Of a stretch of DNA of 64,000 bases, positions 18,652-52,905 are shown piece by piece. The position numbers were made by a program, and so were the translations under genes. The notes below the pieces were generated by a model. It saw only the letters and a list, made by a program, of their open reading frames with translations. It had not been told where the DNA came from and searched no databases. Each line of letters begins with the position of its first letter. Positions within the stretch are counted from its first letter, which is position 1. The stretch is taken from NCBI GenBank assembly GCA_020353155.1, contig CP070689.1, forward strand, positions 686,682-750,681. The letters are read 5' to 3'. This DNA is from Deltaproteobacteria bacterium. Lineage in GTDB: Bacteria > Desulfobacterota > Syntrophobacteria > BM002.

Positions 18652-18695
18652 AAAAAAAATCCCCATCGGCTCAACCACACCAAAGCCGATGGGGG
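18652..18695 (-). terminator. Rho-independent terminator downstream of the PilZ gene at 18927..19280.
   Basis: The minus strand reads GUCCCCCAUCGGCU-UUGGUGUGGUUG-AGCCGAUGGGG followed by UUUUUUUU. Confidence 0.6.
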
Positions 18696-19280: not shown

Positions 19281-19570
19281 AGCTAAAATCCTTTCTCATC
19301 CTGCGCCGCATCGAAGTTCGAGAAATCTCTAAGGCCCTGTGACGACTCTTATCTCAGTTTATCTGTCGCCCTAGCACACCAATGATGATTTTTGCCCGCC
19401 AGTGAATAAACCACGAGAGCTCAGTGTAAGTCAACACTTAACCCTTTAAGTCTACTATAAGAAAACCCCACCGCCCGGTGTTGCTCCCTTGAACATGACG
19501 AGCCTGACGCTGGGGAAAAGAGGCGAAGTTGTTCTTGTCTGATAAGGGGTTAAGGAGTTAGGGGGTCACC

Positions 19571-20116
19571 CTATTTGGGAATATACTGGAACTTCTGACC
19601 GCCCACAGTGGCCTCTGCCATTAAGCCGCTCTTAGGCATGGTAAAAACAGCCACTCCACGGTCGTAACTTGCGTCTTTGGAAGCCCCTGATTTCACCAGG
19701 ATTACCGATGCCTGAGCGTCGAGTTCCCAATTTCCCCTCTTGAAATCATCCAGCCTTGATTTATCCGCAAAGAAAATTATCTCACTGAAAGACTGGCCAC
19801 CGATCTGAGCTCCTACCGTTAGTTCCGTCACGGTGGCACGGCCAATATGTCTGCCTTTTTCATACACCCATCCATCCCCGTGGCCACCACCAATGATAAA
19901 GCCACCTTTGCCGATTGATGGGAAGACAACATAACCGTAAGCCTTAGCAAAAAACACTTTCATACTAGGGTCTGCTTGCTTGAACTTGACGATGGTTTCC
20001 TCGACGAGTGTTCTTTCCTTCTGCTCCCGAGCCGGGTCCCACCCTGCCCATGTCGACATATGGAGCAAGACTATTAGACAAATTGTGACGAGACCATAAA
20101 TAGGCGCTTTTCGCAT
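19571..20116 (-). CDS. SYLF (DUF500/Ysc84-like) domain lipoprotein.
   Basis: Internal start MRKAPIYG (ATG at 20116), with a signal peptide plus TM. The SYLF core is GYVVFPSIGKGGFIIGGGHGDGWVY ... GAQIGGQ. Confidence 0.6.
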   Translation of the reverse strand: MRKAPIYGLVTICLIVLLHMSTWAGWDPAREQKERTLVEETIVKFKQADPSMKVFFAKAYGYVVFPSIGKGGFIIGGGHGDGWVYEKGRHIGRATVTELTVGAQIGGQSFSEIIFFADKSRLDDFKRGNWELDAQASVILVKSGASKDASYDRGVAVFTMPKSGLMAEATVGGQKFQYIPK

Positions 20117-20301
20117 AATAAGTCTCCCTCTTTTGCTTTGTGGATTGAGTCTTTTGTTGCCAAGAACCAAAAACGGTTCTCACTATTGGCTTAGAGGCAA
20201 TTTTAAGGGTGGCACAAGCTTTGTCAATAGGAAAACTGCTCAATCTCTGTGTTTAGAAAGAATCCACTAGCTCTTTCTGCAACCTGGCCCCTTTCCCTGC
20301 G

Positions 20302-21465: not shown

Positions 21466-21660
21466 GTCTAACTCTCCTTATGGATCTGCACTTCCAGAGA
21501 ATAAAAAGGATAGACACCAGGATACTGCATTCCTATCAGTGCTAGCAATTGATTTCAAATAAAGAATCCTGGCCCGACTCAGATCCCGCTCAGTGGGGGA
21601 GGACCTACCTTTGAGCAACTCCGATGAGGCAAATAGCTTGGTGCATAGTGCAAAGCGTTT

Positions 21661-21727
21661 GGTAAACAGTAAACGGTGAACGGTAAACCGATCATTCACT
21701 GGCTCCATAACTGTTTACCGTTTACGC
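21661..21727. repeat. GTAAACG/GTGAACG heptamer array arranged as an inverted repeat.
   Basis: GGTAAACAGTAAACGGTGAACGGTAAACCG ...(spacer)... AACTGTTTACCGTTTAC. The arms are reverse complements and can form a ~15-bp hairpin. Confidence 0.65.
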
Positions 21728-21842
21728 CTTTTCTGGCTATGGACCATGCGCTATGCTCCTCTTTGTCTTCAGAATGGCATTTCTGTTGCATGTGTAAGGA
21801 AATGAATAGCAAAAATGCGCATTTTGTCTGGGGCAATAATCT

Positions 21843-22076
21843 ATGGCAGATAACATTCTTTCTATAAATAACCTTTTTGAGCGGAAAGAAGACCCTCGCT
21901 ACGCGGACGGCTACACCTATTTTTGTCAAAAGTGTGGTCTGGAGTGCAATGTGGGGGAAGCATCGTTTAACTGCCAGGAAGGAAGGATTTTACCAGTCTA
22001 CATCAAATGTCGCTATGGCTGTGGTCGGTCTTGGCACCTAAAAATTTTTCCCTCAGGCAAGGTGGATCTTCATTAA
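21843..22076 (+). CDS. Hypothetical Cys-rich small protein (77 aa). Possible zinc ribbon.
   Basis: Eight Cys, including CQKCGLEC...C and C...YGCGRS. No clear RBS. An ORF only. Confidence 0.3.
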   Translation: MADNILSINNLFERKEDPRYADGYTYFCQKCGLECNVGEASFNCQEGRILPVYIKCRYGCGRSWHLKIFPSGKVDLH

Positions 22077-22109
22077 GGGATCTTAGATCCAAGAGAAGAA
22101 TAGAAACTA

Positions 22110-22306
22110 TGGCGGATTTTAAGCCCATAACGATTGACACCGTGTCAATTAAAGTCAGGATGACAAAAGACACCATGGAGCTGTTTTCCGTTCCGGTGCC
22201 CGCACGACAGCTTGAGTTTTCTTTTCAAGATCCGTCTGGGGTTCGCGTCCTCGACAACCCGCTGGAGGACAATTTAAGGAATTACGTTGCCTGGGGCAGG
22301 CTTTAG
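22110..22306 (+). CDS. Hypothetical small protein (65 aa from MADFKPI...).
   Basis: Internal ATG of ORF 22007..22306. No motif. Confidence 0.25.
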
Positions 22307-22433
22307 AGCTACCAAGATCCCAAAAGTCCTTAGCTAAGGCGCACTACTTTTTAATCTTCGCTTCTCTCAACAAAATTACCAAGGCTCAGCAAGATTACAG
22401 AGAACATCCCACTTCTTGCCAAGGCTTCTCACC

Positions 22434-22835
22434 TTAGGGTATGGTCTTACCTCCCTTACGTTTCTTCTGGGCAATGACATTCCCTATGAACTGAACGTCT
22501 GCTTCCGATATGTATTCAAACTCTGCACCTATTATGAAAAGACTGGAATCTTCTTGAGGGACCCGTTCCATCGCCCATATTGATTTTACTGATACCAGTA
22601 TGGGTTGATGGCTGGGAGGTTGGATTTCCAGCCGAAATTCTTGCCCTATGGGGGGCAACTCACGACAGTAAAAAGATGCTCCAACCTGACTGAGGCTCTT
22701 GGGTTCTCCCGTAAACTGTCCGTCGGAGGTGATGACAGTTGTGGGCCATTTGACCTCTATTCGCTCAAATCTGCGTCTATCTCTCTCGAAAACCATGATG
22801 CGCACCCTATTGCTAAAGCATTTGTAGACCGTCAA
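22434..22835 (-). CDS. PilZ domain protein, a putative c-di-GMP receptor.
   Basis: 133 aa. RRFERIEV (RxxxR) and a DGQFTGEPKSLSQVG (DxSxxG-like) motif. Confidence 0.65.
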   Translation of the reverse strand: MTVYKCFSNRVRIMVFERDRRRFERIEVKWPTTVITSDGQFTGEPKSLSQVGASFYCRELPPIGQEFRLEIQPPSHQPILVSVKSIWAMERVPQEDSSLFIIGAEFEYISEADVQFIGNVIAQKKRKGGKTIP

Positions 22836-22858
22836 AAAGGATGCTTAAAAAAAATAGG

Positions 22859-23047
22859 TTAACCATCAAGCACCAATTTTTGTTGGTTCCCCTTTGGGGA
22901 CACGCTTTGATGCCTTCCGAGGAAAAACATGCAGACCAAACACAACAGAGGAACAATCAGATACTCATTAGGGACATCATAAAGTACAGCGTAGCCAGCA
23001 AAAAGGGCCAAGAAGAGCTGAAAAAGCAGCAAGGTTATCCGTCTCAT
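22859..23047 (-). CDS. Hypothetical small membrane protein (62 aa).
   Basis: Two hydrophobic segments (LLLFQLFLALFAGYAVL, LIVPLLCLVCMFFL). It lies directly upstream of the PilZ gene on the same strand. Confidence 0.2.
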   Translation of the reverse strand: MRRITLLLFQLFLALFAGYAVLYDVPNEYLIVPLLCLVCMFFLGRHQSVSPKGNQQKLVLDG

Positions 23048-23326
23048 TAGATTTCCTCCTCAGATTATTGGTTGCACGTACGGCTCTGCAAATAATGGAA
23101 AAAATATGCCACATCTCTATAAATGATATTTTTTTCTTGTTTTCTCATATATTTAAACAAGAAATAACGTCCAGTCATAGTCGGCTAATCAGTCAAATTA
23201 AGCCGCTGCCGTATCCAAAAATGCATGTTTGGGGAATTTTTAAATACAGGTGGAGACACTTTTAGGAATGACGATTTAAAAACAAATCCTTCACAAGCAG
23301 ATCGCTGTTCCGCCTAAATGGTATCG

Positions 23327-23770
23327 TCAGGACTGACTAATCTCCTGGTACAGGGGGAGCACTGTCGTGTCTTTTGATTTGGACTTTGTAAGTTTGCCTG
23401 CCAACTTCCCCCCTGATTCTATGGAAAGTCTTCCGTAAGCTATCTCTCCAATTACTGTCCCTGTGCTTAATATGTTTAACCTGCCATTGCAGATCATCTC
23501 ACCTTGGAATTTTCCTGCCACACTTATGTTCTCTGCCTCCACATTCGCATCTACATCGCCTTCTTGTAGAATTTCAAGAGAGCCGCACTTTATCGTTCCT
23601 GTCACTGAACCATGCACAATGAGAGTGCCCTCTGTCTCTATGTTACCCTTAAAATTACTACTGTCAGAAATGATAGTAGTCTCTACAGTTTTGAATGGAC
23701 TTCTGAAAATCTTGCCTTTGGAAGGGCTATCATTTTGTTCCGGCGGTTTTTCCTTTGTTCTCTGCCACAT
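23327..23770 (-). CDS. Bactofilin (DUF583/CcmA-like polymer-forming cytoskeletal protein).
   Basis: 147 aa. Repetitive beta-helix pattern: FKGNIETEGTLIVHGSVTGTIKCGSLEILQEGDVDANVEAENISVAGKFQGEMICNGRLNILSTGTVIGEIAYGRLSIESGGKLAG. Confidence 0.75.
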   Translation of the reverse strand: MWQRTKEKPPEQNDSPSKGKIFRSPFKTVETTIISDSSNFKGNIETEGTLIVHGSVTGTIKCGSLEILQEGDVDANVEAENISVAGKFQGEMICNGRLNILSTGTVIGEIAYGRLSIESGGKLAGKLTKSKSKDTTVLPLYQEISQS

Positions 23771-23845
23771 GGTTTATCCTTGTCTGGGTTAAGATGTTTT
23801 CTGGATTACCAACAGTCAAAAAAAATGCAAAGTTTATGCCCATCC

Positions 23846-24049
23846 TCAGAGAATTCCTCCACAGTCGTTCTGGCAAAGTAGTAATTGTGCGCTCCGCCAT
23901 CCTGTAATCGGCCCCCAGTCTACTCCCAGCCAGTTACTTATGTAGCCTATGACTACGTTTACTTTTTCTCGAAATCCTGGGTACATTAGCGTGAGTAAAA
24001 CAAACAAGATCACTAACGCCAGCAATATAGGTATGATTTTCTTTTTCAT
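23846..24049 (-). CDS. Hypothetical small membrane protein (67 aa).
   Basis: Single TM (IIPILLALVILFVLLTLM). It lies between the thioredoxin-like gene and the bactofilin gene on the same strand. Confidence 0.3.
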   Translation of the reverse strand: MKKKIIPILLALVILFVLLTLMYPGFREKVNVVIGYISNWLGVDWGPITGWRSAQLLLCQNDCGGIL

Positions 24050-24065
24050 CCCGCGATCCCCACTG

Positions 24066-25034
24066 CTAGTTTTGCTTGTTGTAGCTGTGTACCCGGACCA
24101 TGTAGTCTATATTTTCAATGAAATCATCGGGTGACCTTCTGTCGGCGACTTGTATTATTGTCTCACCGCTATAATCAAGGAAAAAAACTGATGGTATATA
24201 TCTTACTTCGTATTCTTTGACTAATTGCCTTTTAGCTTTATCTACATCTATATATATGTTAACTAGCTGAGTTGATGCGTTTGCTACATCGTCATGAGAA
24301 AATACATTTTTGACCATTTGTTTACATGCACCACACCAAGAAGCAGAAAAAACAAGCATAACCGGTCTGCCAGATTTTAACGCTGCATCAAGTCCTTTAT
24401 CATAATCTGTGTAAAAGGATATTTTGCCTATGGTTTTTTCTTCAGCTACATTTTTGTAAGCAAATAATGTAACTCCTGCCAAGAATAGAATAACCAAAAC
24501 TGTAGAAAAGCTAATAAACCACCGTTGTACTCCTCTGAAACCGACGAGGTCTGCCTCAGGACCACCTGGCCTTGCTTCAGCCGTTGGTGCATGAGGTCTT
24601 TGATAAAATTTACTTACAACTATTCCGCAGCGAAGACACTCCTCAGATTCCTCCTGTTCAAACTGGCATTTAGGACAAATCATAATGTCCTGCTGCCTCG
24701 GTTCTTCCTTCTCTTTTTCCATCATGAGGGGCTGTTCCAGGCCAACATGAGCCTCCAATTCTTCCACCTTACATACGGCTCCTGCCCTCTCAAAGGCCTG
24801 CAAGTATTTCATTGCTGTCTCATGATCCACATCCTTTTTTATCGCTAACCTTTTACCGGAAAAAAACCGCTCGATTTGCGCCTCATTGGCCCTAAAAAGA
24901 GTGGCCAGTCCTCTTTTCACCTCCTCAACTTGCATTCCGTCGAGAATCTCTCCCTCAAATACCACCCTGTAACGCCGCTCCGTCATGATCTTCTTCCATG
25001 TCGTGAGACGGGACACCTTAGTTGCGGTGCCCAA
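24066..25034 (-). CDS. Membrane-anchored thioredoxin-fold protein with a cytoplasmic zinc-ribbon.
   Basis: 322 aa. N-terminal soluble domain, CPKC...CLRC zinc-ribbon, one TM helix (FISFSTVLVILFLAGVTLFAY), and a C-terminal thioredoxin-like domain with the WCGAC active site. Confidence 0.65.
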   Translation of the reverse strand: MGTATKVSRLTTWKKIMTERRYRVVFEGEILDGMQVEEVKRGLATLFRANEAQIERFFSGKRLAIKKDVDHETAMKYLQAFERAGAVCKVEELEAHVGLEQPLMMEKEKEEPRQQDIMICPKCQFEQEESEECLRCGIVVSKFYQRPHAPTAEARPGGPEADLVGFRGVQRWFISFSTVLVILFLAGVTLFAYKNVAEEKTIGKISFYTDYDKGLDAALKSGRPVMLVFSASWCGACKQMVKNVFSHDDVANASTQLVNIYIDVDKAKRQLVKEYEVRYIPSVFFLDYSGETIIQVADRRSPDDFIENIDYMVRVHSYNKQN

Positions 25035-41631: not shown

Positions 41632-43080
41632 CTAGCCCTTATTCTCCAGGGCCCTGATCCTACTCAGGCAAGTGTCGATGAGTACGGCCGGAGAAAAGCC
41701 TCCGGCAAATCTCTCGTCTAGCGACTCCGGCATTTTTTTCAGGAGCCGCACCACATTTGCATATTCGAGTCTTGCCTCATCAAATTGCCCCACCTGGCTG
41801 TAGAGGTCGCCCAAATTGAATCGGGCCAGGGCATGCTCCGGCTGCAGATACAATACCTTTTTGAATTCTTCCATGGCTCTGGCGTCATCTTCCCATGTTA
41901 GATAAATGACCCCCAGCAGGTAGTGGCCGGCAACAGATAGAGGCTCCCTCTCAACGATCCTCTCACAGAGCTGTACCGCTTTCTCCAGCTCGCCCTGGTT
42001 GAGGGCAATTTCTGCCTGAAGCAGGAGTATACTTTCTGGCGCGCTTGACTCCCTCAGATATGGGCTCAAGATTTCACCGGCCTCTTGGGGTTTCCCCCTC
42101 TCTAGAAGTTCCTTTGCCCTGGCGCAGATTTGCGCAATCTCATCCGACTTTGTCCCAGCAACAGCCTTCGGTCCCTGCTTCCTGGACCTGCGGGTAGTAG
42201 TTCTCCGCCGACCCCTGATTTTTCTGTCTTTTTTTCTGACCTCTTTTTTCGGCACTCCTTTTCGATAAAAAAACGCCCCTTCTTGCTGAAGGGTGTCAAA
42301 TTCATCGGAGATATAGCGTAAGCTCTCTGAGTAACCGGCAAAAAGGTAGCCACCCTCACGCAAACTTCGGTAAAAATTGTGTATTACTTTCCTAGTGGCC
42401 TCTGCTTGGAAATAAATAGTCACATTGCGGCAAAAAATTATGTCCCAGCCAGACATCTCTATCAGTGGATAGGGCTCGGTTACCAGATTGAAGTAACGAA
42501 ATTCCACCATCTGCTTAATCGACTCGTCAAGCAAGTAGTGATTCCCTTTTCTAATAAAAAAACGGTTTAGATAGTCCTGCGGCACGTCGCGGACGGAACG
42601 GGCCGTATAGATTCCCTCACGAGCCGCCTTCAGCGCATCTTGACTTACATCGGTGGCTAGAATCTGGATTGGCCTATCCACTGTTCCTGCCGCCAAAATC
42701 ATGGCAATGGTGTAAGGCTCCTCTCCGGTAGAACAGCCCGCGCTCCATATTCGCAGTGATGCTCCCGGATAAGATTTCTTTTTAACTATCTCTGGAATCA
42801 CAAAACGTTCGAGGGCCCTGAACTGTGCTCGATCTCGGAAGAAATGAGTTTCTGGGATTGTTATCAAGTTGAGCAAATGGTCGAATTCTTTGGTACAAGC
42901 CGGAGACAAAAGGAGATTGAAATATTCGGCAAAATTACTGAGACCGCAATCTGCCATTCTTTGCAGAAGATTATCCTTGAGCAATTCTTGTTTCTCGGGC
43001 TCGAAATAAATTCCGGACCTCTCTGCAATCAGATCCCGAAAACTGCGGAAATCATTCTCACTGAGTGATAATTCGTTCAT
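41632..43080 (-). CDS. cheR: Chemotaxis protein methyltransferase CheR with C-terminal TPR repeats (FrzF-like).
   Basis: Start MNELSLSENDFRSFRDLIAERSGIYF (ATG at 43080). The CheR SAM-MTase has RIWSAGCSTGEEPYTIAMIL. The C-terminal ~150 aa are TPR (AGHYLLGVIYLTWEDDARAMEEFKKVLYLQPEHALARFNLGDLYSQVGQFDEA). Confidence 0.85.
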   Translation of the reverse strand: MNELSLSENDFRSFRDLIAERSGIYFEPEKQELLKDNLLQRMADCGLSNFAEYFNLLLSPACTKEFDHLLNLITIPETHFFRDRAQFRALERFVIPEIVKKKSYPGASLRIWSAGCSTGEEPYTIAMILAAGTVDRPIQILATDVSQDALKAAREGIYTARSVRDVPQDYLNRFFIRKGNHYLLDESIKQMVEFRYFNLVTEPYPLIEMSGWDIIFCRNVTIYFQAEATRKVIHNFYRSLREGGYLFAGYSESLRYISDEFDTLQQEGAFFYRKGVPKKEVRKKDRKIRGRRRTTTRRSRKQGPKAVAGTKSDEIAQICARAKELLERGKPQEAGEILSPYLRESSAPESILLLQAEIALNQGELEKAVQLCERIVEREPLSVAGHYLLGVIYLTWEDDARAMEEFKKVLYLQPEHALARFNLGDLYSQVGQFDEARLEYANVVRLLKKMPESLDERFAGGFSPAVLIDTCLSRIRALENKG

Positions 43081-43260
43081 TTGATTTGATCTTCTGGTCC
43101 GACCCACCAATTGGACAGCCAAAATGCAAACCCCGGTGAAACTAGCCCTTCCTGTGGAATTTAGCTCTAGGCGAGTCCGCAAGGCTGCATTCCACAAGGC
43201 GAGAATTACACCGGGTATATCTCGTCAATTTTGCCGCCGACCTTCAGGAAGCGGTATAGT

Positions 43261-44370
43261 TTATTTTTCTGTATCTTCCTGTTCAGAAATCCATTCCATT
43301 ATCTGAGGTCCAATCTCATCCAGCGGCAGCACTATTTCGGCTGCATCGAGTTCAATTGCGGCCTTCGGCATCCCAAAGATTATGCTGGTCTGTTCATCTT
43401 GAGCTATGGTGTGCCCACCACAAAGTCGAAGACTTTTCAGCCCCTCCGCCCCGTCGGATCCCATGCCGGTGAGGATGACACCAATCCCTCGCTTCCCATA
43501 ATTGTTGGCCACTGAATCAAAAAGCAACTCAGCCGACGGTCGGTGGCCATTGATTGGCAGGGATCTGTTGAGACGCACACTGTCCAGCTCGGTGACCATC
43601 ATATGGTGATCCCCAGGAGCAACCAGAACTACTCCAGCCTCGAGCAAATCTCCTTCCTGCGCCTTCCTCACCTCAAGCTCCACTTCGTTATCTAGCCAGC
43701 GGACCAAACCTTCCAGAAATCCCGTACTCATATGCTGAACAACAAGGAAGGCGGCGCTTACCTGAGGTGAAATTCCCCTTAAAACCCTTACAAGTGCGGT
43801 CGGCCCTCCGGTGGAAGCCGCGATTGCTACCACCAGAGGGGACTCTGCTAGTCTTGGCTGAGGGCGGCGGAAAGTAAAGAGCGGTTCAGGCTCAGCAGGG
43901 ACGTATTCCACCACCCGCTTCACCTTGGTAGAGGCCAGAGTGCGCAATCTGCGCAAAAAGCTGTTTCTGATCTCCGGCCGAGTGCGCCATAGGTAGAGCT
44001 CCTGCTTGTCAAGAACGTCCAGAGCGCCGGCCGTTATGGCGCGAAAGAGCTTTTCCTCCTGTTTACTCATAGAAGCGGTGATCATTACAATGGGAACTGG
44101 GAATACAGCCAGAATACGCTCCACCGCCTGAAAACCGTCAATCCCGGGAAGTCGTATGTCCATAGTAACCAGATCGGGCCTCATTTTTAAAGCGGAGGCC
44201 ACAGCCTCCAATCCATCCCCCACCGCTCCCACCACTTGAAATCGTGGGTCGGTGGTCAGGATTTCTTCAAGCAAGTCCCGGGCGCTTTTTACATCATCTA
44301 CGATCAGTACCCGGATGGGCTCGCTGCCCTCGGTATCCCTCATATTTTGCTTTTCCCGTTCAGCTGTCAT
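43261..44370 (-). CDS. cheB: Protein-glutamate methylesterase/response regulator CheB.
   Basis: 369 aa. N-terminal REC (VLIVDD...MDIRLPGIDG) and a C-terminal CheB methylesterase (GASTGGPTAL, catalytic S/H/D). Confidence 0.9.
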   Translation of the reverse strand: MTAEREKQNMRDTEGSEPIRVLIVDDVKSARDLLEEILTTDPRFQVVGAVGDGLEAVASALKMRPDLVTMDIRLPGIDGFQAVERILAVFPVPIVMITASMSKQEEKLFRAITAGALDVLDKQELYLWRTRPEIRNSFLRRLRTLASTKVKRVVEYVPAEPEPLFTFRRPQPRLAESPLVVAIAASTGGPTALVRVLRGISPQVSAAFLVVQHMSTGFLEGLVRWLDNEVELEVRKAQEGDLLEAGVVLVAPGDHHMMVTELDSVRLNRSLPINGHRPSAELLFDSVANNYGKRGIGVILTGMGSDGAEGLKSLRLCGGHTIAQDEQTSIIFGMPKAAIELDAAEIVLPLDEIGPQIMEWISEQEDTEK

Positions 44371-44415
44371 CTTGTCGTTTGGGCATGCTTTTAGAGATGT
44401 TGGTGCCTAGTTCAG

Positions 44416-47004
44416 TTATTGCTTACTGCCTTCCCCGAGCAAGGTCTCTATGGTTTCAATCAAGTTTTTTTGATCAAAGCTGCTTTTGACTAAATAGGCG
44501 TTGGCGCCTGCCTCCAGTCCCCGTCGCTTGTCCTCCTCACTCTCCATAGAGGTTACAACCACCACTGGCAAATCTTTGGTTCTCTCATTGGACCTGATTT
44601 TTCTGGTGAGGGTGAAACCGTCCATCTTCGGCATTAGTACATCTGTAAGCACCAAGTCAAAATCCTGTTGTCCCAATCTGTTCAGAGCATCCATTCCGTT
44701 CTCCGCAGTAACTACTTGATAGCCGGCCGCTTCCAAGATGCTCTTTTCCATCTGCCGGGTCACCACCTGATCTTCCACCACTAAGATCAACTGACCGTGT
44801 GTCGAGATGACCTTTTCTTCTGGTGCCCTCTCCTTCTTTCTTACCTCAGGATGCCCGCGCCATAATAGCTGGGGTACATCTAGAATGATAGCCACCTCGC
44901 CTGAACCTAGAATGGTGGCGCCGGCCACGTAGTCTACTTTCTTGAGATGGGTCCCCAAGTCTTTGCTGACAATCTCGAGCTCTCCCAATATATCCTCCAC
45001 CAGGAAGCCTACCTTGCGCTCCCCAGCTTGAAGGATCACAACCAGAACCTTGCCCTCCTTCGGTGGGCTGCCATTCCTCTCTTTCCAGCCCAAAGTGGCC
45101 GCAAGGCTTCGCACCGGCAGAATCTCTTCCTGATGCACCACTGCCTGCCGTCCCTGAATTGATTTGATCTCCTGCAGAGGGACTTGAAAGGTCTTGGCCA
45201 CAGAGAAAGCGGGAACGGCCAGGACTTCGCCAGCGCACCGGACCATGAGTGCATGGACTGTTGCCAGGGTGAGGGGCAGAGATATGGTAAAAGTAGTTCC
45301 TTTGCCCAGTTCCGAAGCGATCTCCACCTGACCTTTAAGCCGATCCACATTGGCTCGCACTACATCCATGCCCACTCCACGACCTGAGACATCAGTGACC
45401 AGGCCACTCGTGCTCAAACCCGGGAGAAAGATGAGCTCTAGAAGTTGAGCTTCGCTCCAACCCGCAATCTCCCTTTCATCCACTAGCCCTTTGTCTAAGG
45501 CCGCTTTTTTAAGGAGTTGGGAGTCAATACCCTGACCATCGTCTTCCAGGATGATAAGTACTTTGGCTCCCTCTTGCTTTGCCTCGAGTCTGATTGTTCC
45601 GAGCTCTGGCTTCCCAGCGCTTCGTCTGACATCGGGTGCCTCCAGACCGTGGTCCAGAGCGTTGCGCAGCAAATGAATCAGAGGATCGCCTATCTGCTCG
45701 AGGATGCGCTTGTCGATAGTTGTCTCTTCTCCCTTTACTGTAAAAGCAACCTTCTTGCCGAATTGCCGGCTGAGATCACGCACGGCCCTGGGTAAAGTGT
45801 TCAAGACCAGGGCCAGAGGCAGCATACGAATCTCCATACTGCGATGCTGCAAGTTCTCAATGTGACGACCGGCATTTTCTGCGGCATCTTGCAAACGACG
45901 GCCCATATCCTCTAGGGAGTCTCCAAACTCAAAGAGTTTGCTTACCAAGCCCGTCTCTCTCGCTGGCTCAGCTGAATGGACAGCATCGTAGTCATGAATA
46001 CGCAGATGCCGCCACTTGTCTCTGATTTGCATGAGCCCATCAATTTCGCTTGCAAGATGTTGTTGAGCCACAGCCGCCTCGGCTGCCAGGTTGACAAGTT
46101 CATCCAGTTTGGTTGTGGTCACCCGAACAGTATCCATGGTCGAAACGCTGGTCTCACTGACCGGAACCGATTCAGTGACTGGTCTAACCGGCTCTGTCAC
46201 TATGGCGCCTACTGCGGGCTGAAGCTCAGGCAGTAAATTGGCTAGCCGCGCCATGGTGCTTTCCGCGTCGACTCTAATCCTTTTGCTGGCCGCAAGGGTA
46301 TCCAGCATTACCGTAAGAGCATCATTGGTCTCGTACAGGGCGTCGCACGCTTCCGTCGTTACCGGGAGTTGGCTCTTTTGCAGGGCCCGAAGGACGTCCT
46401 CCATGTGGTGAGCCAGCTTTCCCATCCGCTCAAATCCCATGGTCATGGCCGAACCTTTGAGACTATGGGCGTTTCTATAGACTTCCTGTAAAATCTCATT
46501 GTTTGCTGGTTCTTTCTCCAGAACTGCCAGGCCACGGTTGATTGCCTCCACATTGTCACGAGCAGCGGCAATAAAATCTGGTAGGAGAGCCTCCATATCC
46601 TCGGGGGCTCTTTCCTCTTCTATTTCTATGGCAGTGAAGAGGAGAGGCTCCAATTCCTCAACCAGATCGGCTACCCTGCTGGAGTCCACTTCTCTGGTTC
46701 GCAGGTATTGAACAAAGAGATCTATTCCATCGAAGAAAAGGTTGGCGAGATATTCATCGAAAGGTAAGCGGCCCGCATCTACTGCCACCAGGACGTCTTC
46801 AAATATATGGGCCAACTGGCCAAGAGTCGGTGCCCTCAGCCGATTGGCAAATCCTTTTATGTTGTGCAGCTGCCGGCTTGCCCTTTCAAGCGAATCATGA
46901 GCTTTAGGATCGGTTTCAAGCCTCAGCAAAGCATCATTGAACTGCTCGAGAGCTTCCCGATAATCATCTTTCAAGGTCAAAAACAGGTCGGTATCTTCGC
47001 TCAT
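44416..47004 (-). CDS. cheA: Chemotaxis histidine kinase CheA with two Hpt domains and a C-terminal CheY-like receiver (FrzE-like hybrid).
   Basis: 862 aa. Hpt1 H in QLHNIKGFANRL and Hpt2 H in NAHSLKGSAMTMG. P3 dimerisation, HATPase N-box LLRNALDHGLE, G1 DDGQGID and G2 GRGVGMD. A CheW-like P5 domain follows. The REC domain has VVEDQ...LTDVLMPKMDG...VKS. Confidence 0.9.
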   Translation of the reverse strand: MSEDTDLFLTLKDDYREALEQFNDALLRLETDPKAHDSLERASRQLHNIKGFANRLRAPTLGQLAHIFEDVLVAVDAGRLPFDEYLANLFFDGIDLFVQYLRTREVDSSRVADLVEELEPLLFTAIEIEEERAPEDMEALLPDFIAAARDNVEAINRGLAVLEKEPANNEILQEVYRNAHSLKGSAMTMGFERMGKLAHHMEDVLRALQKSQLPVTTEACDALYETNDALTVMLDTLAASKRIRVDAESTMARLANLLPELQPAVGAIVTEPVRPVTESVPVSETSVSTMDTVRVTTTKLDELVNLAAEAAVAQQHLASEIDGLMQIRDKWRHLRIHDYDAVHSAEPARETGLVSKLFEFGDSLEDMGRRLQDAAENAGRHIENLQHRSMEIRMLPLALVLNTLPRAVRDLSRQFGKKVAFTVKGEETTIDKRILEQIGDPLIHLLRNALDHGLEAPDVRRSAGKPELGTIRLEAKQEGAKVLIILEDDGQGIDSQLLKKAALDKGLVDEREIAGWSEAQLLELIFLPGLSTSGLVTDVSGRGVGMDVVRANVDRLKGQVEIASELGKGTTFTISLPLTLATVHALMVRCAGEVLAVPAFSVAKTFQVPLQEIKSIQGRQAVVHQEEILPVRSLAATLGWKERNGSPPKEGKVLVVILQAGERKVGFLVEDILGELEIVSKDLGTHLKKVDYVAGATILGSGEVAIILDVPQLLWRGHPEVRKKERAPEEKVISTHGQLILVVEDQVVTRQMEKSILEAAGYQVVTAENGMDALNRLGQQDFDLVLTDVLMPKMDGFTLTRKIRSNERTKDLPVVVVTSMESEEDKRRGLEAGANAYLVKSSFDQKNLIETIETLLGEGSKQ

Positions 47005-47014
47005 AAGAACTTAT

Positions 47015-47037
47015 CGGGCGGGGGTCAACCCCGCCCC
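47015..47037. other. GC-rich perfect hairpin in the mcp-cheA intergenic spacer.
   Basis: GGGCGGGG-GTCAA-CCCCGCCC, an 8-bp G/C stem. It is not followed by a U-tract on either strand. Confidence 0.4.
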
Positions 47038-47096
47038 TACTGACTAGCTCACTGTTCCGTTGTAGTCAGCAAAAATATAATCTCTAATTATTTGAA

Positions 47097-47134
47097 AATT
47101 TTAGACATTTTAGCGCATTTTAGTACATTTTAGG
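47097..47134. repeat. Tandem CATTTTAG-type 8-10-mer array.
   Basis: ATTTTAGA CATTTTAG CGCATTTTAG TACATTTTAG GCAG. It lies between the mcp 3' end and the cheA start. Confidence 0.65.
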
Positions 47135-47137
47135 CAG

Positions 47138-49303
47138 TTACTCTATCTTAAACTCACTAACCCTTGATCTGAGCTCCTCCGAGAGTCGGTTGAGATCGCT
47201 TGCTGAGGAGATGGTGTTCTTAGAAGCAGCCGCAGTTTGCTGTGCCACTTTAGAGATTTCTCTCATGGTGTTGACCACCTGTTCGCTTGCCTCTTTCTGT
47301 TGGTTTGTGGCCACAGAAATCTGCCTCGCCGATTCCGCAGTTTGCTCAGCCATGGCAATAATGTTTTCCAAGGCGTCCCGCACCTTGTTCAGGCGTACTT
47401 CCCCTTCCTCAACTCCCTTGACATTCTCCTCAGCTGCAAGAACCGAAGCATTTGCGGCCGACTGAATCTCCAAGAGCACATCCCGGATGGTACCCGTGGA
47501 TTTCACTACATCTTCGGCAAGGCGGCGAATCTCTCCGGCCACCACGGAGAAACCTTTACCTGCCTCCCCTGCTTTTGCCGCTTCAATGGCCGCGTTGAGG
47601 GAAAGCATTTTGGTTTCTATGGCTATTTCATTGATTATATCAATAATTTCACCTATTTGCTGGCTTTTTTGCCCCAGCCTGAGAATCTTCTCAGCGCTTT
47701 CTTCGGTTTTGCTTCGAATCAGGACCATGCTCTTGGTACTCTCTTCCATGAAATCCTGTCCTTCTTCGGCGCTCTTCAAGGTCTCTTCGGCCACAGCGGT
47801 TACGGCGTTACTGTTTTCGGCGATCTGCCGGGCAGTTGTGCTGAGCTCCTCCATAGTTGCGGTAGTCTCACTTACCGAAGCCGCTTGCTGTGCCGCGCCA
47901 CTCGCCTGCTGCTGAGCTGCCGACACGATCTCGCTGGAGGAGTTGCCTATGCGAGACGCTGCCTCCTGACTCTGGCCGGTCATCTCCCTAAGATTGTTCA
48001 CCATAGCGTTGATTGCCTTGCCGAAAGGGCCTGGGAAAATCACCCGCTGGCTGAAGTCTCCACCGGCAATTTTCTGTGCCTGTCCGGCAAGCAAAGTAAA
48101 GTTCTGGTGCATGGAGTCAAAGGCCTCAGCTAGCATTCCCACTTCATCGCCCGATGCGAGGGCGACCTTCTCGGAGATCTCTCCCTCAGAAATCTTTCTG
48201 GCATATCGCCCCAGTTTGCTCAGGGGCTTGGTAAAATTACCGGCAAGAATATAGGCAAGGTAAAATCCGATAAGTAGGATTAGCAAGCAGGCAAGGCTAG
48301 TCATCCAGAAAACATTTCTCAGGGGTGAAAAGAATCCGCTGCTGTCTGCTTCACTGACCAAAAATCCGTTCAAGTCTTCTATCTTATGGAAGGCGTAGAT
48401 CTTGCCCTGAAGTTTGTCCACATAGGTGCCGAAAGGTGTCCGAGCCAACTCGCTCATCAGCCCCTCCGGTAGCACAGGACTCGATCCTTGCGGGTGGCTA
48501 GCAATCAAGGATCCAGTGGAGGCAAGCAAATAGGTCGAAGTGGAACCACCAACTCTTAACTTTCCCAGCACCTCCTCTAGCCTCTCTATTTTCTTGTGCT
48601 CGGCTAAATTTCTCCAGTTTTGGGTGCTGGAAACCAGGTCAAGCTTGATACGCTGAGCTTCTATTGCCTGACTTTCTAAAGCTTTCTTACTTTCCACATA
48701 GCTGATGGAACTCACAAAAAGAACGGCAATGAGAACCAGCGAACCACAAGTGACCCACAGCTTTTGAGAAAGACTCATGCCCTTTAGGGACACCCGTTCC
48801 GGCAAGCTGCTCATAAACTCTGCCATCGCCGGAAGAGTGATAGCCTCCATAGTAAAAAGGCTAAAAATAGAGTAGAGCAAACAAATAACAAGTCCTGCCA
48901 GAAGGCTCTGGAGAGTCTGAGCTAGGCTGAAATGAGCCATCAACCTCATCGCCAGAGTTCCCAGTAAAAAGATTCCATATCCGGCCGCAAAGAGGCCTAG
49001 GGCCAGACGTCCTGGCAATTTAGCACCCAATTGCAGAGTAGCGGCCGCTTCCTGGAAATCCAACTCGCCATCAGTAGAAATGGCTCTCTCGAGTGAAAGG
49101 AGTTGTCGACCGTACTGCATGGGCAAAAGCATAAAGAGGCCAAGCAGTAAAACCGCTTCAACAAAGTAAATAGCCAGAAAAGACCGGACCTGACCACCAG
49201 CCAAGTCAACGCTGAGCCAGAGGTAGGGCAGCCCAAGGATTAGAACTACATAGACAAACAACATAGCCTGGTTCCAAACGATCTTTTTCTTGAGTCCACT
49301 CAT
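47138..49303 (-). CDS. Methyl-accepting chemotaxis protein with a multi-TM N-terminal sensor module.
   Basis: 721 aa. About 5 N-terminal TM helices, a ~150 aa extracytoplasmic region, a sixth TM, then HAMP. The MCP signalling domain follows, including the highly conserved hairpin region ETKMLSLNAAIEAAKAGEAGKGFSVVAGEIRRLAE. Confidence 0.9.
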   Translation of the reverse strand: MSGLKKKIVWNQAMLFVYVVLILGLPYLWLSVDLAGGQVRSFLAIYFVEAVLLLGLFMLLPMQYGRQLLSLERAISTDGELDFQEAAATLQLGAKLPGRLALGLFAAGYGIFLLGTLAMRLMAHFSLAQTLQSLLAGLVICLLYSIFSLFTMEAITLPAMAEFMSSLPERVSLKGMSLSQKLWVTCGSLVLIAVLFVSSISYVESKKALESQAIEAQRIKLDLVSSTQNWRNLAEHKKIERLEEVLGKLRVGGSTSTYLLASTGSLIASHPQGSSPVLPEGLMSELARTPFGTYVDKLQGKIYAFHKIEDLNGFLVSEADSSGFFSPLRNVFWMTSLACLLILLIGFYLAYILAGNFTKPLSKLGRYARKISEGEISEKVALASGDEVGMLAEAFDSMHQNFTLLAGQAQKIAGGDFSQRVIFPGPFGKAINAMVNNLREMTGQSQEAASRIGNSSSEIVSAAQQQASGAAQQAASVSETTATMEELSTTARQIAENSNAVTAVAEETLKSAEEGQDFMEESTKSMVLIRSKTEESAEKILRLGQKSQQIGEIIDIINEIAIETKMLSLNAAIEAAKAGEAGKGFSVVAGEIRRLAEDVVKSTGTIRDVLLEIQSAANASVLAAEENVKGVEEGEVRLNKVRDALENIIAMAEQTAESARQISVATNQQKEASEQVVNTMREISKVAQQTAAASKNTISSASDLNRLSEELRSRVSEFKIE

Positions 49304-49330
49304 GGGAAACAGATCCCTCCTTGACCGTTT

Positions 49331-49747
49331 TTAGCCCTCATATTGAAGATCTACTAGCAGGACCAACTCATCATTCCATTGGCAGACACCCCACAGTTGC
49401 TTCCATTGCTTCTGAACATCGAGCAAAGGTGGTAGCTTCCATACCTGTCTGGTCATGTCGACTGATATGAGATCGCCTACCTTGTCGACTTTATAACCCA
49501 TCTTTTCCTCACCCCGATCTATGATTAGGATTTGCCGGTGATTTTCACTTGGCGCTGGGGGCAGACCGCACGCCGTCCTCAAGTCCAGTATGGGTAAATG
49601 ATCAGCTGATCCAATGTCTGGAGTAGGTGACATCTGCCGGGATGGAGGGGGCAGTCTGAGTACCTGATGGGCCTCTACACCTAAGAGGAATGGACCAACC
49701 CAAAAGGTGAGAATCGCCAGGGTAGCAGCCTCGTCGGTACCTACCAT
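49331..49747 (-). CDS. cheW: CheW-like coupling protein (divergent, FrzB-like position).
   Basis: 138 aa. The CheW fold pattern (ILTFWVG...LPILDLR...ILIIDRGEEKMGYKVDKVGDLISV) is recognisable but diverged. Confidence 0.7.
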   Translation of the reverse strand: MVGTDEAATLAILTFWVGPFLLGVEAHQVLRLPPPSRQMSPTPDIGSADHLPILDLRTACGLPPAPSENHRQILIIDRGEEKMGYKVDKVGDLISVDMTRQVWKLPPLLDVQKQWKQLWGVCQWNDELVLLVDLQYEG

Positions 49748-49750
49748 GAT

Positions 49751-50287
49751 TTATCCTCGCTCTGAATACATATCTTTTGACCCAAAGATCCCTTCAAGTT
49801 TGATGATACTCAAAAGGATATCACCCCAGTGTGTCGCCCCCTCAAAAAATACACGTTGCAACTCACCCGCGGTAATTGCCTCCTCACTCAAATCATCCGG
49901 GGCCAGTTCTATTAGGTCACCGATCTCGTCTACCAATAAACCCGTCTGCATCTCACCCTGTTCCACCACAACGATGGCCTGGTCAGCCGTTGATTCGCTC
50001 TGAGCCAACCCGAATAATTTCTTTAAATCAACGGCCGATAGCACTTCCCCTCTGAAATTCATGACCCCGAGGATGTGATCGGGGACACTGGGTACCCGGG
50101 TAATCTTGGGTATCGGCAGTACCTCCACCAGTTGGTAGACGCTCAAACCGTACCATTCAGCGTTGAGACGGAAAGTGAGATATTGTTGTTGGGGGGTATC
50201 TAAGGTATCTTGGGCAAGATGATTTTGCTGAGCCCGGCGGACCTGCTCAATAACATTTTTCCCTGGTCCGGTTGGGGAATCTGGCAT
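49751..50287 (-). CDS. cheW: CheW coupling protein (FrzA-like position).
   Basis: 178 aa. YLTFRLNAEWYGLSVYQLVEVLPIPKITRVPSVPDHILGVMNFRGEVLSAVDL is a canonical CheW. Confidence 0.8.
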   Translation of the reverse strand: MPDSPTGPGKNVIEQVRRAQQNHLAQDTLDTPQQQYLTFRLNAEWYGLSVYQLVEVLPIPKITRVPSVPDHILGVMNFRGEVLSAVDLKKLFGLAQSESTADQAIVVVEQGEMQTGLLVDEIGDLIELAPDDLSEEAITAGELQRVFFEGATHWGDILLSIIKLEGIFGSKDMYSERG

Positions 50288-50374
50288 GCAATAAACTCCT
50301 CACTTCCATATAGCCATCTACGCCAGCGCCAAAAAAATGCAAGTATCCGATGTGGGCTAGCTCCTTACCCCTCA

Positions 50375-52540
50375 CTACTGTTCCCGGCCGTAAATGGATA
50401 GCACCCGGTTGATTCTGGCTAGCAGCAGGTTGGCAACAATTGGTTTGGGAATATAATCATCGGCGCCAGCCTCCAGACCCTCCACCTCATTTTCTACCTC
50501 GTCCATAGAAGTGAGAAGAATCACCGGTATTATACTGGTCTGCAAATGACCTTTGAGCTTTTTAACCAGGGAAAGACCATCGAGTTTGGGCATAACCACA
50601 TCGGAGATAATCAGATCGGGCCTCTCCCTATAGACCTTCTCCAAGGCTTCCTCCCCATCGGTGGCTAGCACCACATCGTATTGGGCTTCAGTCAATACCT
50701 TTTCCAGCATCTTGCGGATGAAGGGATCGTCGTCCACTGCCAAAATCCGCAGCTGATCCCTAGATGGCTCAGGAACTTTATCTTCCGCCAACCCTACAAC
50801 TGCCTCCTCCACTGGGGCCACAATGCCTTTTACCTCCGGCGGTGGCGCCACCCTCATCAACTCTTCAACCGAGGTTACTCCCTTAAGAAGCTTGTCTCGA
50901 CAGTCACCAAACATGTCGTCGATTCCTCGCTCTCTGGCATTTTCTGCAATCTCGGTATCCGAAGCTCCTTTGACAATAAGTTTCCTCAATTCATCATCGA
51001 CCCTGAGTACCTCGTAGATCCCGATTCGCCCCATGTAGCCTGTAAACTGACAGGCTTCACAACCCTGACCTTTCTTGATTTTATTTTCAAAGTTTTTCGT
51101 ATCGGAGAAGCCAAATCGGGTGAGTAGCTTTTTGTCCACCTTGTCAGACATCAGGCAATGGGGGCAGTTTTTCCTAACCAGCCGCTGTGCCAGAACGCAA
51201 AGGAGCGATGAGGCGATAACATAAGGGTCGACGCCCAAGTCCACCAGTCTAGTCACTGCCGAGGAGGCATCGTTGGTGTGCAAGGTTGTCAAGACCAGGT
51301 GGCCTGTGTTTGCTGCCTGGAAAGCTATTTTTGCTGTCTCCGCATCTCGGATCTCCCCCACCATGACCACGTTGGGATCCTGTCGCAGGATGGAGCGCAG
51401 TCCGGAGGCAAATGTTATTCCTGCTTTCTCGTTTACCTGGACCTGACTGATACCTGGCAGCTGATACTCCACGGGGTCTTCTACAGTTACGATGTTTATC
51501 ACCTCTGATCTCAAACGGTTGAGAGATCCATAAAGAGTTGTACTCTTGCCGCTACCAGTGGGTCCTGTGACCAGAACTATACCTTGCGGCCTGGTGAGCA
51601 TGGAGGTGTAGACTGACAGGTCGTCAGATTTGAAACCAAGTTCTTCGAGATCAATGAATGCCTTGGACTGGTCTAATATGCGGATTACCACCTTTTCGCC
51701 AAAGATAGTGGGCAGGGTGGATATACGCATATCAAATTGATTCTTGCCGACCTTGAGTTTGGTGCGGCCGTCCTGTGGGCGCCGCTTAACCGAAATGTCC
51801 ATATCGCCGATGATTTTGATTCTGGAGACCAGTGGGGCCAAAGCTGGTAGGCCAACTTTGAAGATGTTTTTCATCATCCCATCGATACGGTAACGCACGG
51901 ACACCTCTTTTTCATGGGGCTCGATGTGGATGTCGCTAGCGCTTAGTTTAATGGCGTCGGCAAGAATTGCATTGGTCAACCTGACAATGGGAGCTATCTC
52001 AGATTGACGGATGAGCTCGTCTACGTCGTATTCGTTGTCTTCCCTTTCCTCGGCGAGAACTTCCACCTCCTCCGTGGGAACCATGGTGGCGAACATATCG
52101 AAGTCAAAATCATCCCCGTATTTCTCGTCTATGGCCTCACGGATATCTTCTTCGGCAGCAACCGCTACTGACACATCAAGTCCCGTCTTGAATTTGACCT
52201 CGTTAATAGTGCCATAATCCAGCGGATTGGCCATGGCAAGACGGAGACGTCTTCCTGTCTTTTCATAAGGAAGGATGAGCCTTCTGTTCGCCTGCTTTCT
52301 AGAGATGGTTTCGAGGACCTCCTCCGGGATTTCCAGATTTTTAAGTTTGACGTGAGGGATATTTAGCTGTTTGGACAGGGCCTGGCAAATATCCTCATCC
52401 TTGGCCCACTGCTTCTCAACGATGATTTTACCGAGATGTTTCTTTGTTCCCTTTTTCTGTTCTTCCAGTGCTGTAACCAGTTGATCCTCGCTGATCAATC
52501 CAGCTTCCACTAGAATCTGACCAAGTTTTTTCCGTCGCAT
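50375..52540 (-). CDS. MshEN (c-di-GMP-binding N-domain) plus GspE/PilB/MshE-type secretion/pilus ATPase plus a C-terminal CheY-like receiver. A three-module fusion.
   Basis: 721 aa.
- Residues ~5-50 carry two tandem MshEN 24-mers: KLGQILVEAGLISEDQLVTALEEQ and HLGKIIVEKQWAKDEDICQALSKQ.
- T2SSE N1 region (RLILPYEKTGRRLRLAMANPLD).
- ATPase core with Walker A LVTGPTGSGKSTT, Asp box/Walker B VMVGEIRD, His box TGHLVLTTLHTND, and the tetracysteine CPHC...CEAC.
- The C-terminal REC has LAVDDD, ISDVVMP (the phospho-Asp), LLTS and IPKP. Confidence 0.85.
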   Translation of the reverse strand: MRRKKLGQILVEAGLISEDQLVTALEEQKKGTKKHLGKIIVEKQWAKDEDICQALSKQLNIPHVKLKNLEIPEEVLETISRKQANRRLILPYEKTGRRLRLAMANPLDYGTINEVKFKTGLDVSVAVAAEEDIREAIDEKYGDDFDFDMFATMVPTEEVEVLAEEREDNEYDVDELIRQSEIAPIVRLTNAILADAIKLSASDIHIEPHEKEVSVRYRIDGMMKNIFKVGLPALAPLVSRIKIIGDMDISVKRRPQDGRTKLKVGKNQFDMRISTLPTIFGEKVVIRILDQSKAFIDLEELGFKSDDLSVYTSMLTRPQGIVLVTGPTGSGKSTTLYGSLNRLRSEVINIVTVEDPVEYQLPGISQVQVNEKAGITFASGLRSILRQDPNVVMVGEIRDAETAKIAFQAANTGHLVLTTLHTNDASSAVTRLVDLGVDPYVIASSLLCVLAQRLVRKNCPHCLMSDKVDKKLLTRFGFSDTKNFENKIKKGQGCEACQFTGYMGRIGIYEVLRVDDELRKLIVKGASDTEIAENARERGIDDMFGDCRDKLLKGVTSVEELMRVAPPPEVKGIVAPVEEAVVGLAEDKVPEPSRDQLRILAVDDDPFIRKMLEKVLTEAQYDVVLATDGEEALEKVYRERPDLIISDVVMPKLDGLSLVKKLKGHLQTSIIPVILLTSMDEVENEVEGLEAGADDYIPKPIVANLLLARINRVLSIYGREQ

Positions 52541-52837
52541 AGTCCGAGTTTACCGTTTGTCATCCATTGCAGAAATAAGCTCACCCCTTGGCGAAACTGA
52601 AAGCAAAAAGCGGTTAGGGGTGATTTCGCCTTTGCAGTTCATTAGCATATCCTTGATATATTTACAATAGATATGCAGCTGACTCAAAATCTCTCTGGTG
52701 CCGCACTAGACAGGGTTTAACTGCTCTCGTATAATTATTATTCAGCCGGAACAACTTAGTAGTTAAGTAAGCATCATTTATGATTTTAGATTGCAGATTG
52801 GGGCTGAATCCATTCCTTGAGACTTGGTTCTGACACC

Positions 52838-52873
52838 TTAAATCTGAAATCTACACTCTAAAATCTAAAATCG
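52838..52873. repeat. Tandem TNAAATC heptamer array in the tilS and che-operon divergent region.
   Basis: TTAAATC TGAAATC TACACTC TAAAATC TAAAATC G. Confidence 0.7.
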
Positions 52874-52905
52874 CTGGACTCCAATACTCCGCAACAAAGG
52901 TTTCC

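Follow-up and report, generated by a model that had tools for sequence, protein, structure and literature searches.

How chemosensory pathways signal to the type IV pilus (T4P) motor is still debated, with PilG/PilH, PixG, FrzZ and polarity proteins as the points of discussion. A chemosensory gene cluster in a 64,000-nucleotide stretch of a Deltaproteobacteria bacterium genome (GenBank assembly GCA_020353155.1, contig CP070689.1, positions 686,682 to 750,681; here called the window) raises the question in a new form: is the ATPase with its own receiver domain (REC), encoded by the first gene of the cluster, the response regulator of the pathway? An open reading frame (ORF) map of the window places seven co-directional minus-strand ORFs at 41632–52540, which bears out the gene list, order and coordinates given in an earlier note made from the sequence alone. 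All seven proteins match the Pfam families claimed for them with scores well over the curated cut-offs, and every domain claim of that note is upheld by Pfam and NCBIfam profile searches.

We lean towards answering the question with yes. The cluster would be an alternative cellular function (ACF) pathway whose dedicated response regulator is a PilB-type T4P extension ATPase with a tethered C-terminal receiver, addressed through the relay proposed below. The components and the logic of such a pathway are familiar; the new feature is the output domain, a PilB-type ATPase as an ACF response regulator.

The first gene encodes a PilB-type ATPase with a C-terminal receiver

The ATPase consists of an MshEN domain (approximately aa 1–143), an ATPase core (aa 180–563), a linker (aa 565–597) and a receiver (aa 599–710). 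In a search of PDB structures, aa 1–565 are collinear end to end with the PilB proteins of Geobacter (5tsg/5zfr, 491 bits) and M. xanthus (3jc8, 465 bits), and the score against the GspE structure is lower (398 bits). The secretion/pilus-family ATPase with a receiver described earlier thus stands as a fusion and is sharpened to PilB-like. Family alignments of 57–108 homologues show little or no variation in Walker A/B, the His box or the Zn tetracysteine motif, and the receiver residues D603/D604, D647, T677 and K699 are conserved in 102–108 of 108 full-length homologues. The protein shares with canonical PilB and MshE-type ATPases a collinear aa 1–565, a tandem-motif MshEN domain, the Walker A/B, Asp and His boxes and the Zn tetracysteine motif, and differs from canonical PilB in an extra 33-aa linker and receiver and in not being encoded with pilT, pilC or pilMNOPQ.

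An AlphaFold2 model built on a 57-sequence alignment gives the ATPase domains predicted local distance difference test (pLDDT) values of 80–95 and the linkers values of about 30, with a predicted template modelling score (pTM) of 0.55; residues 145–172 and 571–594 are disordered in it. Confident domains, disordered linkers and this pTM together suggest that the receiver is flexibly tethered to the ATPase. The linker ahead of the receiver is not conserved, even among close relatives.

The reference MshEN domain has two tandem motifs, RLGxx(L/V/I)(L/V/I)xxG(L/V/I)(L/V/I)xxxxLxxxLxxQ, with a 5-residue spacer (PMC5013675). In the alignment of our family the motif reads [KR]LGxxLVxxGLIxxxxLxxxLxxQ. 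Both motifs are recognisable in the ATPase of the window, with the first Arg replaced by Lys in motif 1 and by His in motif 2, a Gly replaced by Gln44, and a spacer of 6 residues rather than 5.

GenBank has an identical protein (UCG21677.1), on the same 3.21-Mb contig of a 'Deltaproteobacteria bacterium' MAG as the entry for CheA, under the product name 'Flp pilus assembly complex ATPase component TadA'. We rejected a TadA/Flp pilus identity, as the MshEN domain and the Zn motif are present and the PilB match is far better. The names given to homologues are inconsistent (PilB, GspE, 'response regulator', 'CheY-like'), and such annotation conceals the fusion.

Reduced clusters retain the ATPase, CheW, the receptor and CheA

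The same seven genes occur in the same order and with the same flanks in the independent metagenome-assembled genome (MAG) or metagenome contigs L003, L004, L006, L008 and L012, with ATPase identities of 72–96%. The seven-gene arrangement is not a chance juxtaposition of one assembly. When matches to the ATPase-REC and to CheA are taken as lying on the same contig, the cluster appears to be conserved in at least 7 Syntrophobacterales assemblies.

Two types of smaller cluster show which genes outlast the others. The complete genome CP070692.1 (L001) has ATPase-REC, CheW, the methyl-accepting chemotaxis protein (MCP) and CheA-REC followed by a 151-aa TPR remnant, and is without CheW2, CheB and the CheR catalytic domain. 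The 151-aa ORF (L001 17955–18410) holds the CheR TPR tail only, 64% identical to aa 348–482 of the CheR in the window, and could be either on its way to decay or kept as a TPR protein in its own right. L020 is reduced further, to ATPase-REC, CheW, MCP and a 736-aa CheA within the same flanking genes. This CheA stops after P5 and there is no space for a receiver ahead of the VTT gene, leaving the ATPase receiver as the sole receiver in the cluster. The receiver residues of the ATPase are intact in L001, L012 and L020, and CheW1 is kept in every version of the cluster, the reduced ones included.

The CheA of the window (100% identical to GenBank UCG21673.1) has two Hpt domains with HxxKG motifs, Hpt1 at His47 and Hpt2 at His180, and no P2 match in Pfam; Pfam confirms both the two Hpt domains plus receiver and the TPR-tailed CheR of the earlier description. 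We found six independent REC-less CheAs of the L020 type. In these the Hpt2 motif AH[SR]LKGS is invariant (6/6) and the Hpt1 site is degenerate (6/6), with the His replaced by Gln or Arg in 4/6, whereas CheAs that bear the receiver retain both phospho-His motifs. Loss of the CheA receiver together with decay of Hpt1, while Hpt2 remains invariant, suggests that the essential P1 domain is Hpt2, which would serve the ATPase receiver. Hpt1 appears to be tied to an accessory layer made up of the CheA receiver and CheB.

Related ATPases without che genes lie beside phosphorelay proteins

In other Thermodesulfobacteriota, ATPase-REC orthologues at 45–49% identity occur without che genes. Those of L013–L016 are encoded directly downstream of a stand-alone Hpt protein, and those of L002 and L017 directly after HK-REC-Hpt hybrid histidine kinases and cyclic di-GMP (c-di-GMP) enzymes. 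Such neighbours fit a receiver that is the terminal acceptor of a phosphorelay. The earlier suggestion of a phosphorelay acting directly on a pilus or secretion motor is strengthened by these neighbourhoods and by the reduction series; it stays an inference, and no structural genes of a pilus or secretion system are found nearby.

The ATPase core scores nearer to other receiver-fused ATPases (555–602 bits) than to PDB PilB (491 bits), and because of this the receiver-fused PilB-like ATPases look like one broad, uncharacterised family comprising dozens of 50%-identity clusters. A query with the last 292 aa indicated that about 35–55 of the best 150 cluster representatives (50% identity) carry both ATPase and receiver, a rough count since the matches are contaminated by multi-receiver proteins. 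A scan of GTDB genomes with the ATPase returned only close relatives and three loci that match the receiver domain alone, with no cultured host.

The ATPase-REC genes of L002 and L017 are followed (L002 12688–14125, L017 10237–11462) by genes for a 191-aa B-box-like Zn-ribbon/transmembrane (TM) protein and a prepilin-like protein (G|F[ST]LLE). The L002 module also holds a 140-aa protein with MshEN-like repeats. A profile search gathered 52 members of the 191-aa family, all of about 191 aa and with source names limited to Thermodesulfobacteriota/Deltaproteobacteria MAGs. None of the 52 lies on the 3.21-Mb or 4.70-Mb Syntrophobacterales contigs, and comparison of the pilin-like and 191-aa proteins of L002 and L017 with the window by tblastn gave chance-level matches only (E >= 0.15). 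The che-linked clade comes without this partner module. On a Desulfobacterales-type contig (L018 15983–16435), a second regulated PilB-like ATPase, of GAF-MshEN-T2SSE architecture and 773 aa, lies about 7.5 kb from an ATPase-REC gene, and sensor-fused PilB paralogues may be common in the phylum.

A proposed relay from receptor to motor ATPase

The receptor is membrane-integral, as had been claimed for it on the basis of about six TM helices: hydropathy gives six segments (aa 14–32, 42–60, 100–118, 134–152, 182–200 and 337–355). A loop of about 135 aa (aa 201–336) separates TM5 from TM6, and a HAMP domain follows. Between the hairpin tip (E580) and the C-terminus lie 141 aa, as would suit a signalling domain of about 40 heptads (40H), and there are two methylation-consensus motifs, at aa 461 and aa 481. 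Residues 1–350 have no Pfam match, and AlphaFold2 run on aa 1–410 as a single sequence gave a pLDDT of 47 and no usable fold.

In the proposed relay the six-TM receptor would sense an envelope or periplasmic cue and control CheA through CheW. CheA would autophosphorylate on Hpt2 (His180) and the phosphoryl group would pass to Asp647 of the ATPase receiver, where phosphorylation may alter ATPase activity, the state of the hexamer, or how the ATPase is recruited to the platform of a pilus or pseudopilus whose genes would lie in another part of the genome. Hpt1 (His47), the CheA receiver, CheB, CheR-TPR and CheW2 would form an accessory relay, phosphate-sink and adaptation layer that evolution may have removed in some lineages while keeping the core. 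A further input, from c-di-GMP, may enter through the MshEN domain. What the sequences show directly is the domain content, the intact catalytic and phospho-acceptor residues, the conserved clustering, the reduction series and the joint loss of the CheA receiver and the Hpt1 phospho-site; we infer the phosphotransfer, its effect on the ATPase and the identity of the filament or machine. Support for a phosphorelay onto the PilB-type ATPase comes from the reduced clusters, which keep ATPase-REC, CheW, MCP and CheA.

The same proteins could also be read with the flow of information reversed, so that the state of the ATPase or the pilus is an input to the array, as has been proposed for PilJ in the Pil-Chp system (PMC11656802), and the receiver provides feedback. 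The unusual multi-TM module of the receptor could indeed sense a membrane component; a contact between receptor and ATPase is, however, without evidence, a receiver with all of its phospho-acceptor residues is a phosphoryl acceptor by definition, and the reduced clusters hold no other acceptor for CheA. We consider a reversed flow very improbable.

As functional precedents, two proteins are known that work on PilB in trans: PixG, which in the chemotaxis-like Tax1 system of Synechocystis binds PilB1 when phosphorylated (PMC11181946), and DrdR of Xanthomonas, which binds and stimulates PilB and PilT (PMC13507683). The fusion described here is the covalent equivalent of the pairing between phosphorylated PixG and PilB1. 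No T2SSE/PilB ATPase figures in published lists of ACF output domains (PMC3447774), nor is a receiver-fused PilB mentioned in a 2024 review of how PilB is controlled (PMC11656802). Targeted literature searches turned up no PilB, GspE or MshE fused to a receiver, only the general remark that MshEN and REC can occur together (PMC5013675). A natural fusion of a receiver to PilB is evidence in the style of the Rosetta stone for receiver-PilB contact as a direct control point, and would add a new type of output domain to ACF pathways and to the response-regulator repertoire. CheA and the ATPase-REC also make a simple two-protein system for biochemistry, without diffusible intermediates.

More tentatively, and with somewhat less confidence than even, we extend the proposal beyond this locus. 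A chemoreceptor-CheA array would phosphorylate the motor ATPase directly via the fused receiver, with no diffusible CheY, and would define a Thermodesulfobacteriota-wide family of phospho-regulated (possibly c-di-GMP-regulated) PilB paralogues that are fed by Che arrays or by Hpt phosphorelays and may govern how syntrophic anaerobes aggregate or make contact through pili. The organisms that carry the cluster are Syntrophobacterales not yet in culture; the names of homologous proteins place the host of the window in Syntrophobacteria/Syntrophobacterales. Their cultured relative S. fumaroxidans has a full set of type IVa pilus (T4aP) genes that is induced, along with chemotaxis genes, as it begins to aggregate with methanogens (PMC10787695), and for this reason the system could bear on how syntrophic partnerships are established.

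Observations that weigh against the proposal

Several observations count against a direct relay onto a pilus motor. There is no pilC, pilin, pilMNOPQ, pilT or type II secretion system (T2SS) gene in the window or beside any che-linked copy of the ATPase gene, and a six-frame search of the window for a prepilin motif gave no match. Against the NCBIfam PilB equivalog model TIGR02538 the ATPase scores 625.7 bits, below the trusted cut-off of 675.65, and the score against the GspE model (584 bits) is near that for PilB. Because of the sub-threshold TIGR02538 score we read the ATPase as a PilB-type paralogue, not necessarily a functional pilus motor. In the AlphaFold2 model the receiver has no defined docked position against the ATPase, in keeping with the pTM and the low pLDDT of the linker. 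Binding of c-di-GMP by the MshEN domain is plausible but uncertain, because the first-position Arg is replaced in both motifs.

The missing platform and pilin genes and the two model scores also favor a different output, in which the ATPase-REC is still phosphorylated by CheA but is a signalling or regulatory protein, or the motor of another machine (a T2SS-like pseudopilus or other filament), and not the T4aP extension motor; the output would then be, for example, control of exopolysaccharide (EPS) and matrix, or secretion. Distant orthologues in c-di-GMP neighbourhoods with GGDEF, HD-GYP and REC-PilZ genes agree with such a role, as does M. xanthus PilB, which is reported to be a signalling protein for EPS (PMC5544727). 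The motor motifs, the Zn tetracysteine included, are nevertheless all invariant across the family, the nearest solved structures are bona fide PilB motors, and a prepilin-like gene follows some of the distant orthologues. On balance we regard a role outside T4aP extension as unlikely, while giving it some weight.

Other observations concern the linkage between the ATPase and the che genes. The association is seen only in the Syntrophobacterales clade, whose members keep the flanking tilS, ftsH, VTT and opp genes in place just as well; because these housekeeping flanks are conserved too, synteny within one clade is by itself weak evidence of functional linkage. The gap between the ATPase gene and cheW, 87 nt in the window, is 368 nt in L004, and the 87- and 133-nt gaps of the cluster are roomy enough for internal promoters. 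Taken with the use of non-Che phosphorelays by the distant orthologues, these points would suit an incidental or loose adjacency, with the ATPase receiver served by another kinase or Hpt protein or acting as a phosphate sink, and with an unlinked regulator or the CheA receiver as the che output. What makes this quite improbable, in our judgement, is that the ATPase-REC/CheW/MCP/CheA core outlasts two independent episodes of gene loss in which all the other receivers of the cluster disappeared, and that Hpt2 stays invariant where the CheA receiver and CheB are gone, which suggests that an acceptor for it persists. The genes are also co-directional, with no terminator-like sites between them. 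We therefore retain the ATPase-REC as the probable response regulator of this cluster.

A probable ACF pathway, for which the Frz label is too narrow

The hallmarks of the ACF class are a CheA-REC without P2, a CheR-TPR, a 40H receptor, two CheWs and a multidomain response regulator (PMC3447774, PMC10782961, PMC5907407), and the presence of the multidomain regulator in the cluster is characteristic (PMC3447774). In the window, CheA ends in a receiver and has no P2, the regulator is multidomain (MshEN-T2SSE-REC), CheR bears a TPR tail, the receptor is roughly 40H and there are two CheWs; on these domain assignments the ACF class is the best place for the cluster. Named distant matches of its CheA, at 36–37% identity, are a 'gliding motility regulatory protein' (an FrzE-type name) and Halomonadaceae hybrid kinases.

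Within the ACF class, Frz makes up a small subfamily (PMC3441718, PMC3447774, PMC5907407), and the earlier note had called the cluster Frz-type. The gene order of frzA-B-CD-E-G-F is indeed present, as CheW, CheW-like, MCP, CheA-REC, CheB and CheR-TPR, and the two systems share ACF membership and an ultimate link to T4P. The label overstates the likeness, because order and domains are generic to ACF clusters and features specific to Frz are missing. FrzCD is cytoplasmic and the receptor here has six TM segments in the membrane; the CheA here has two Hpt domains and there is no FrzZ dual-receiver protein; and the output here is the fused ATPase-REC instead of the FrzZ/FrzX/RomR/MglA polarity module. 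No FrzZ-type dual-receiver ORF is found at 41–54 kb, where the upstream neighbour is the divergent tilS. We rejected a specific Frz orthologue on the six-TM receptor, the missing FrzZ-type ORF and a gene order shared with the outgroup clusters L021–L023. The suggestion that the ATPase takes the position of the response-regulator output holds as a loose analogy only, because frzZ is divergently transcribed. FrzB, a CheW without the CheA-binding region, is reported in Cystobacterineae only (PMC4546325); CheW2 is a short divergent CheW.

The outgroup clusters were reached via CheA (34–45% identity) and have the order CheW, CheW-like, (MCP), CheA-REC, CheB, CheR-TPR, with no MCP gene in L022 and L023. 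As these unrelated, non-Frz ACF clusters share it, the order is not diagnostic of Frz. In place of the ATPase-REC, L021 has a single-domain REC, upstream of the che cluster and in the same orientation, and L022 and L023 have no response regulator. In L022 (8057–9011) and L023 (699–1582) the CheW is followed by a 121-aa protein without a Pfam match that is weakly like CheW2 (E ~2e-4 to 7e-4). This ACF subgroup may long have had a short divergent CheW after a canonical one. Beside the ACF-type che cluster of L021, the opposite strand encodes a PilT-like ATPase (373 aa) and a prepilin peptidase (Peptidase_A24) at 16165–21852, a possible independent association of che and pilus genes.

Among characterised ACF systems, Pseudomonas Wsp (WspA-F, with the REC-GGDEF regulator WspR) and Halomonas cluster 2 share with the cluster a CheA-REC without P2, a CheR-TPR, a 40H membrane receptor, two CheWs of which one is divergent, and a phospho-switched enzymatic multidomain regulator (PMC3447774, PMC5907407, PMC10782961). 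The differences are an output that is here a PilB-type hexameric ATPase, its C-terminal receiver on a disordered linker, the two Hpt domains of CheA, and a gene order unlike that of wsp. The type IV pilus (Tfp) class, represented by Pseudomonas Pil-Chp and Synechocystis Tax1 (PixJ/PixL/PixG/PixH), is alike in chemosensory control of the T4P extension motor, as proposed here, and in a CheA with more than one Hpt and a C-terminal receiver, a trait also of ACF-class CheAs (PMC10782961). Tfp-class systems have free single-domain or PATAN-REC regulators (PilG/PilH, PixG/PixH) and a CheR without TPR, whereas here the receiver lies within the ATPase polypeptide. By Pfam, the cluster has receivers in the ATPase, CheA and CheB only and holds no gene for a free CheY.

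Organization of the cluster

The features of the cluster are listed in Table 1. CheW2 is 27% identical to CheW1 over 134 aa. The catalytic Ser/His/Asp motifs of CheB and the S-adenosylmethionine motif of CheR are present. The cheR ORF reaches upstream to a TTG at 43197, while the ATG at 43080 begins 'MNELS...'; the real start is probably this ATG, because alignments of orthologues begin there.

Table 1. Features of the chemosensory cluster, with positions in the window
Feature	Position	Strand	Length and profile matches
PilB-type ATPase + C-terminal receiver	50375..52540	-	721 aa; MshEN 67 bits, T2SSE 454 bits (E 5e-136), Response_reg 101 bits
MshEN-type N-terminal domain	52112..52528	-	Pfam MshEN 67 bits; tandem 24-residue motifs aa 5-28, aa 35-58
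ATPase receiver domain	50411..50746	-	Response_reg 101 bits; proposed phospho-acceptor Asp647
CheW coupling protein (CheW1)	49751..50287	-	178 aa; Pfam CheW 114 bits
Short divergent CheW-like protein (CheW2)	49331..49747	-	138 aa; Pfam CheW 41 bits, profile positions 48-131 only
Membrane chemoreceptor	47138..49303	-	721 aa; HAMP 57 bits, MCPsignal 115 bits
CheA hybrid kinase	44416..47004	-	862 aa; Hpt x2, H-kinase_dim, HATPase_c, CheW-like P5, C-terminal Response_reg
CheB methylesterase, N-terminal REC	43261..44370	-	369 aa; CheB_methylest 209 bits; NCBIfam PRK12555 344 bits > cut-off
CheR-TPR methyltransferase	41632..43080	-	482 aa from ATG 43080; CheR_N, CheR 187 bits, TPR_19/8/16/17
Intergenic region shared with divergent tilS	52541..52905	.	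365 nt; presumed cluster promoter region

The gaps between the genes are 87, 3, 27, 133, 45, 180 (or 63) and 145 nt, and a scan found no terminator-like site or hairpin in any intergenic gap of the cluster. The 365-nt upstream region contains one weak sigma-70-like site on the minus strand (52766–52737). A sigma-54-like promoter had no match in this region, and matches to it across the window are at chance level.

Surroundings of the cluster

The rest of the window is made up of housekeeping genes. Upstream of the cluster and divergent from it are tilS, ftsH, folP and glmM, downstream are a VTT/DedA gene and an Opp-type ABC transporter, and selB, metK, ahcY, dxs and xseA are among the housekeeping genes elsewhere. 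There are no flagellar genes in the window.

A stretch of low GC content (0.44) at 21500–24100 has small ORFs only, among them a PilZ-domain protein (22434–22835, minus strand, 41 bits) and a bactofilin (23327–23770, minus strand, 83 bits). The PilZ and bactofilin families are tied to c-di-GMP and pilus polarity in other bacteria. A dCache_3-HAMP-PAS-HisKA sensor kinase of 738 aa is encoded at 3435–5651, with no HATPase_c match at E <= 1e-5 despite about 155 residues past HisKA. A tRNA-Leu(CAA) at 6113–6200 is the sole Rfam/ARAGORN match in the window. The selenocysteine elongation factor SelB is encoded at 803–2752, and its presence indicates that the host uses selenoproteins.

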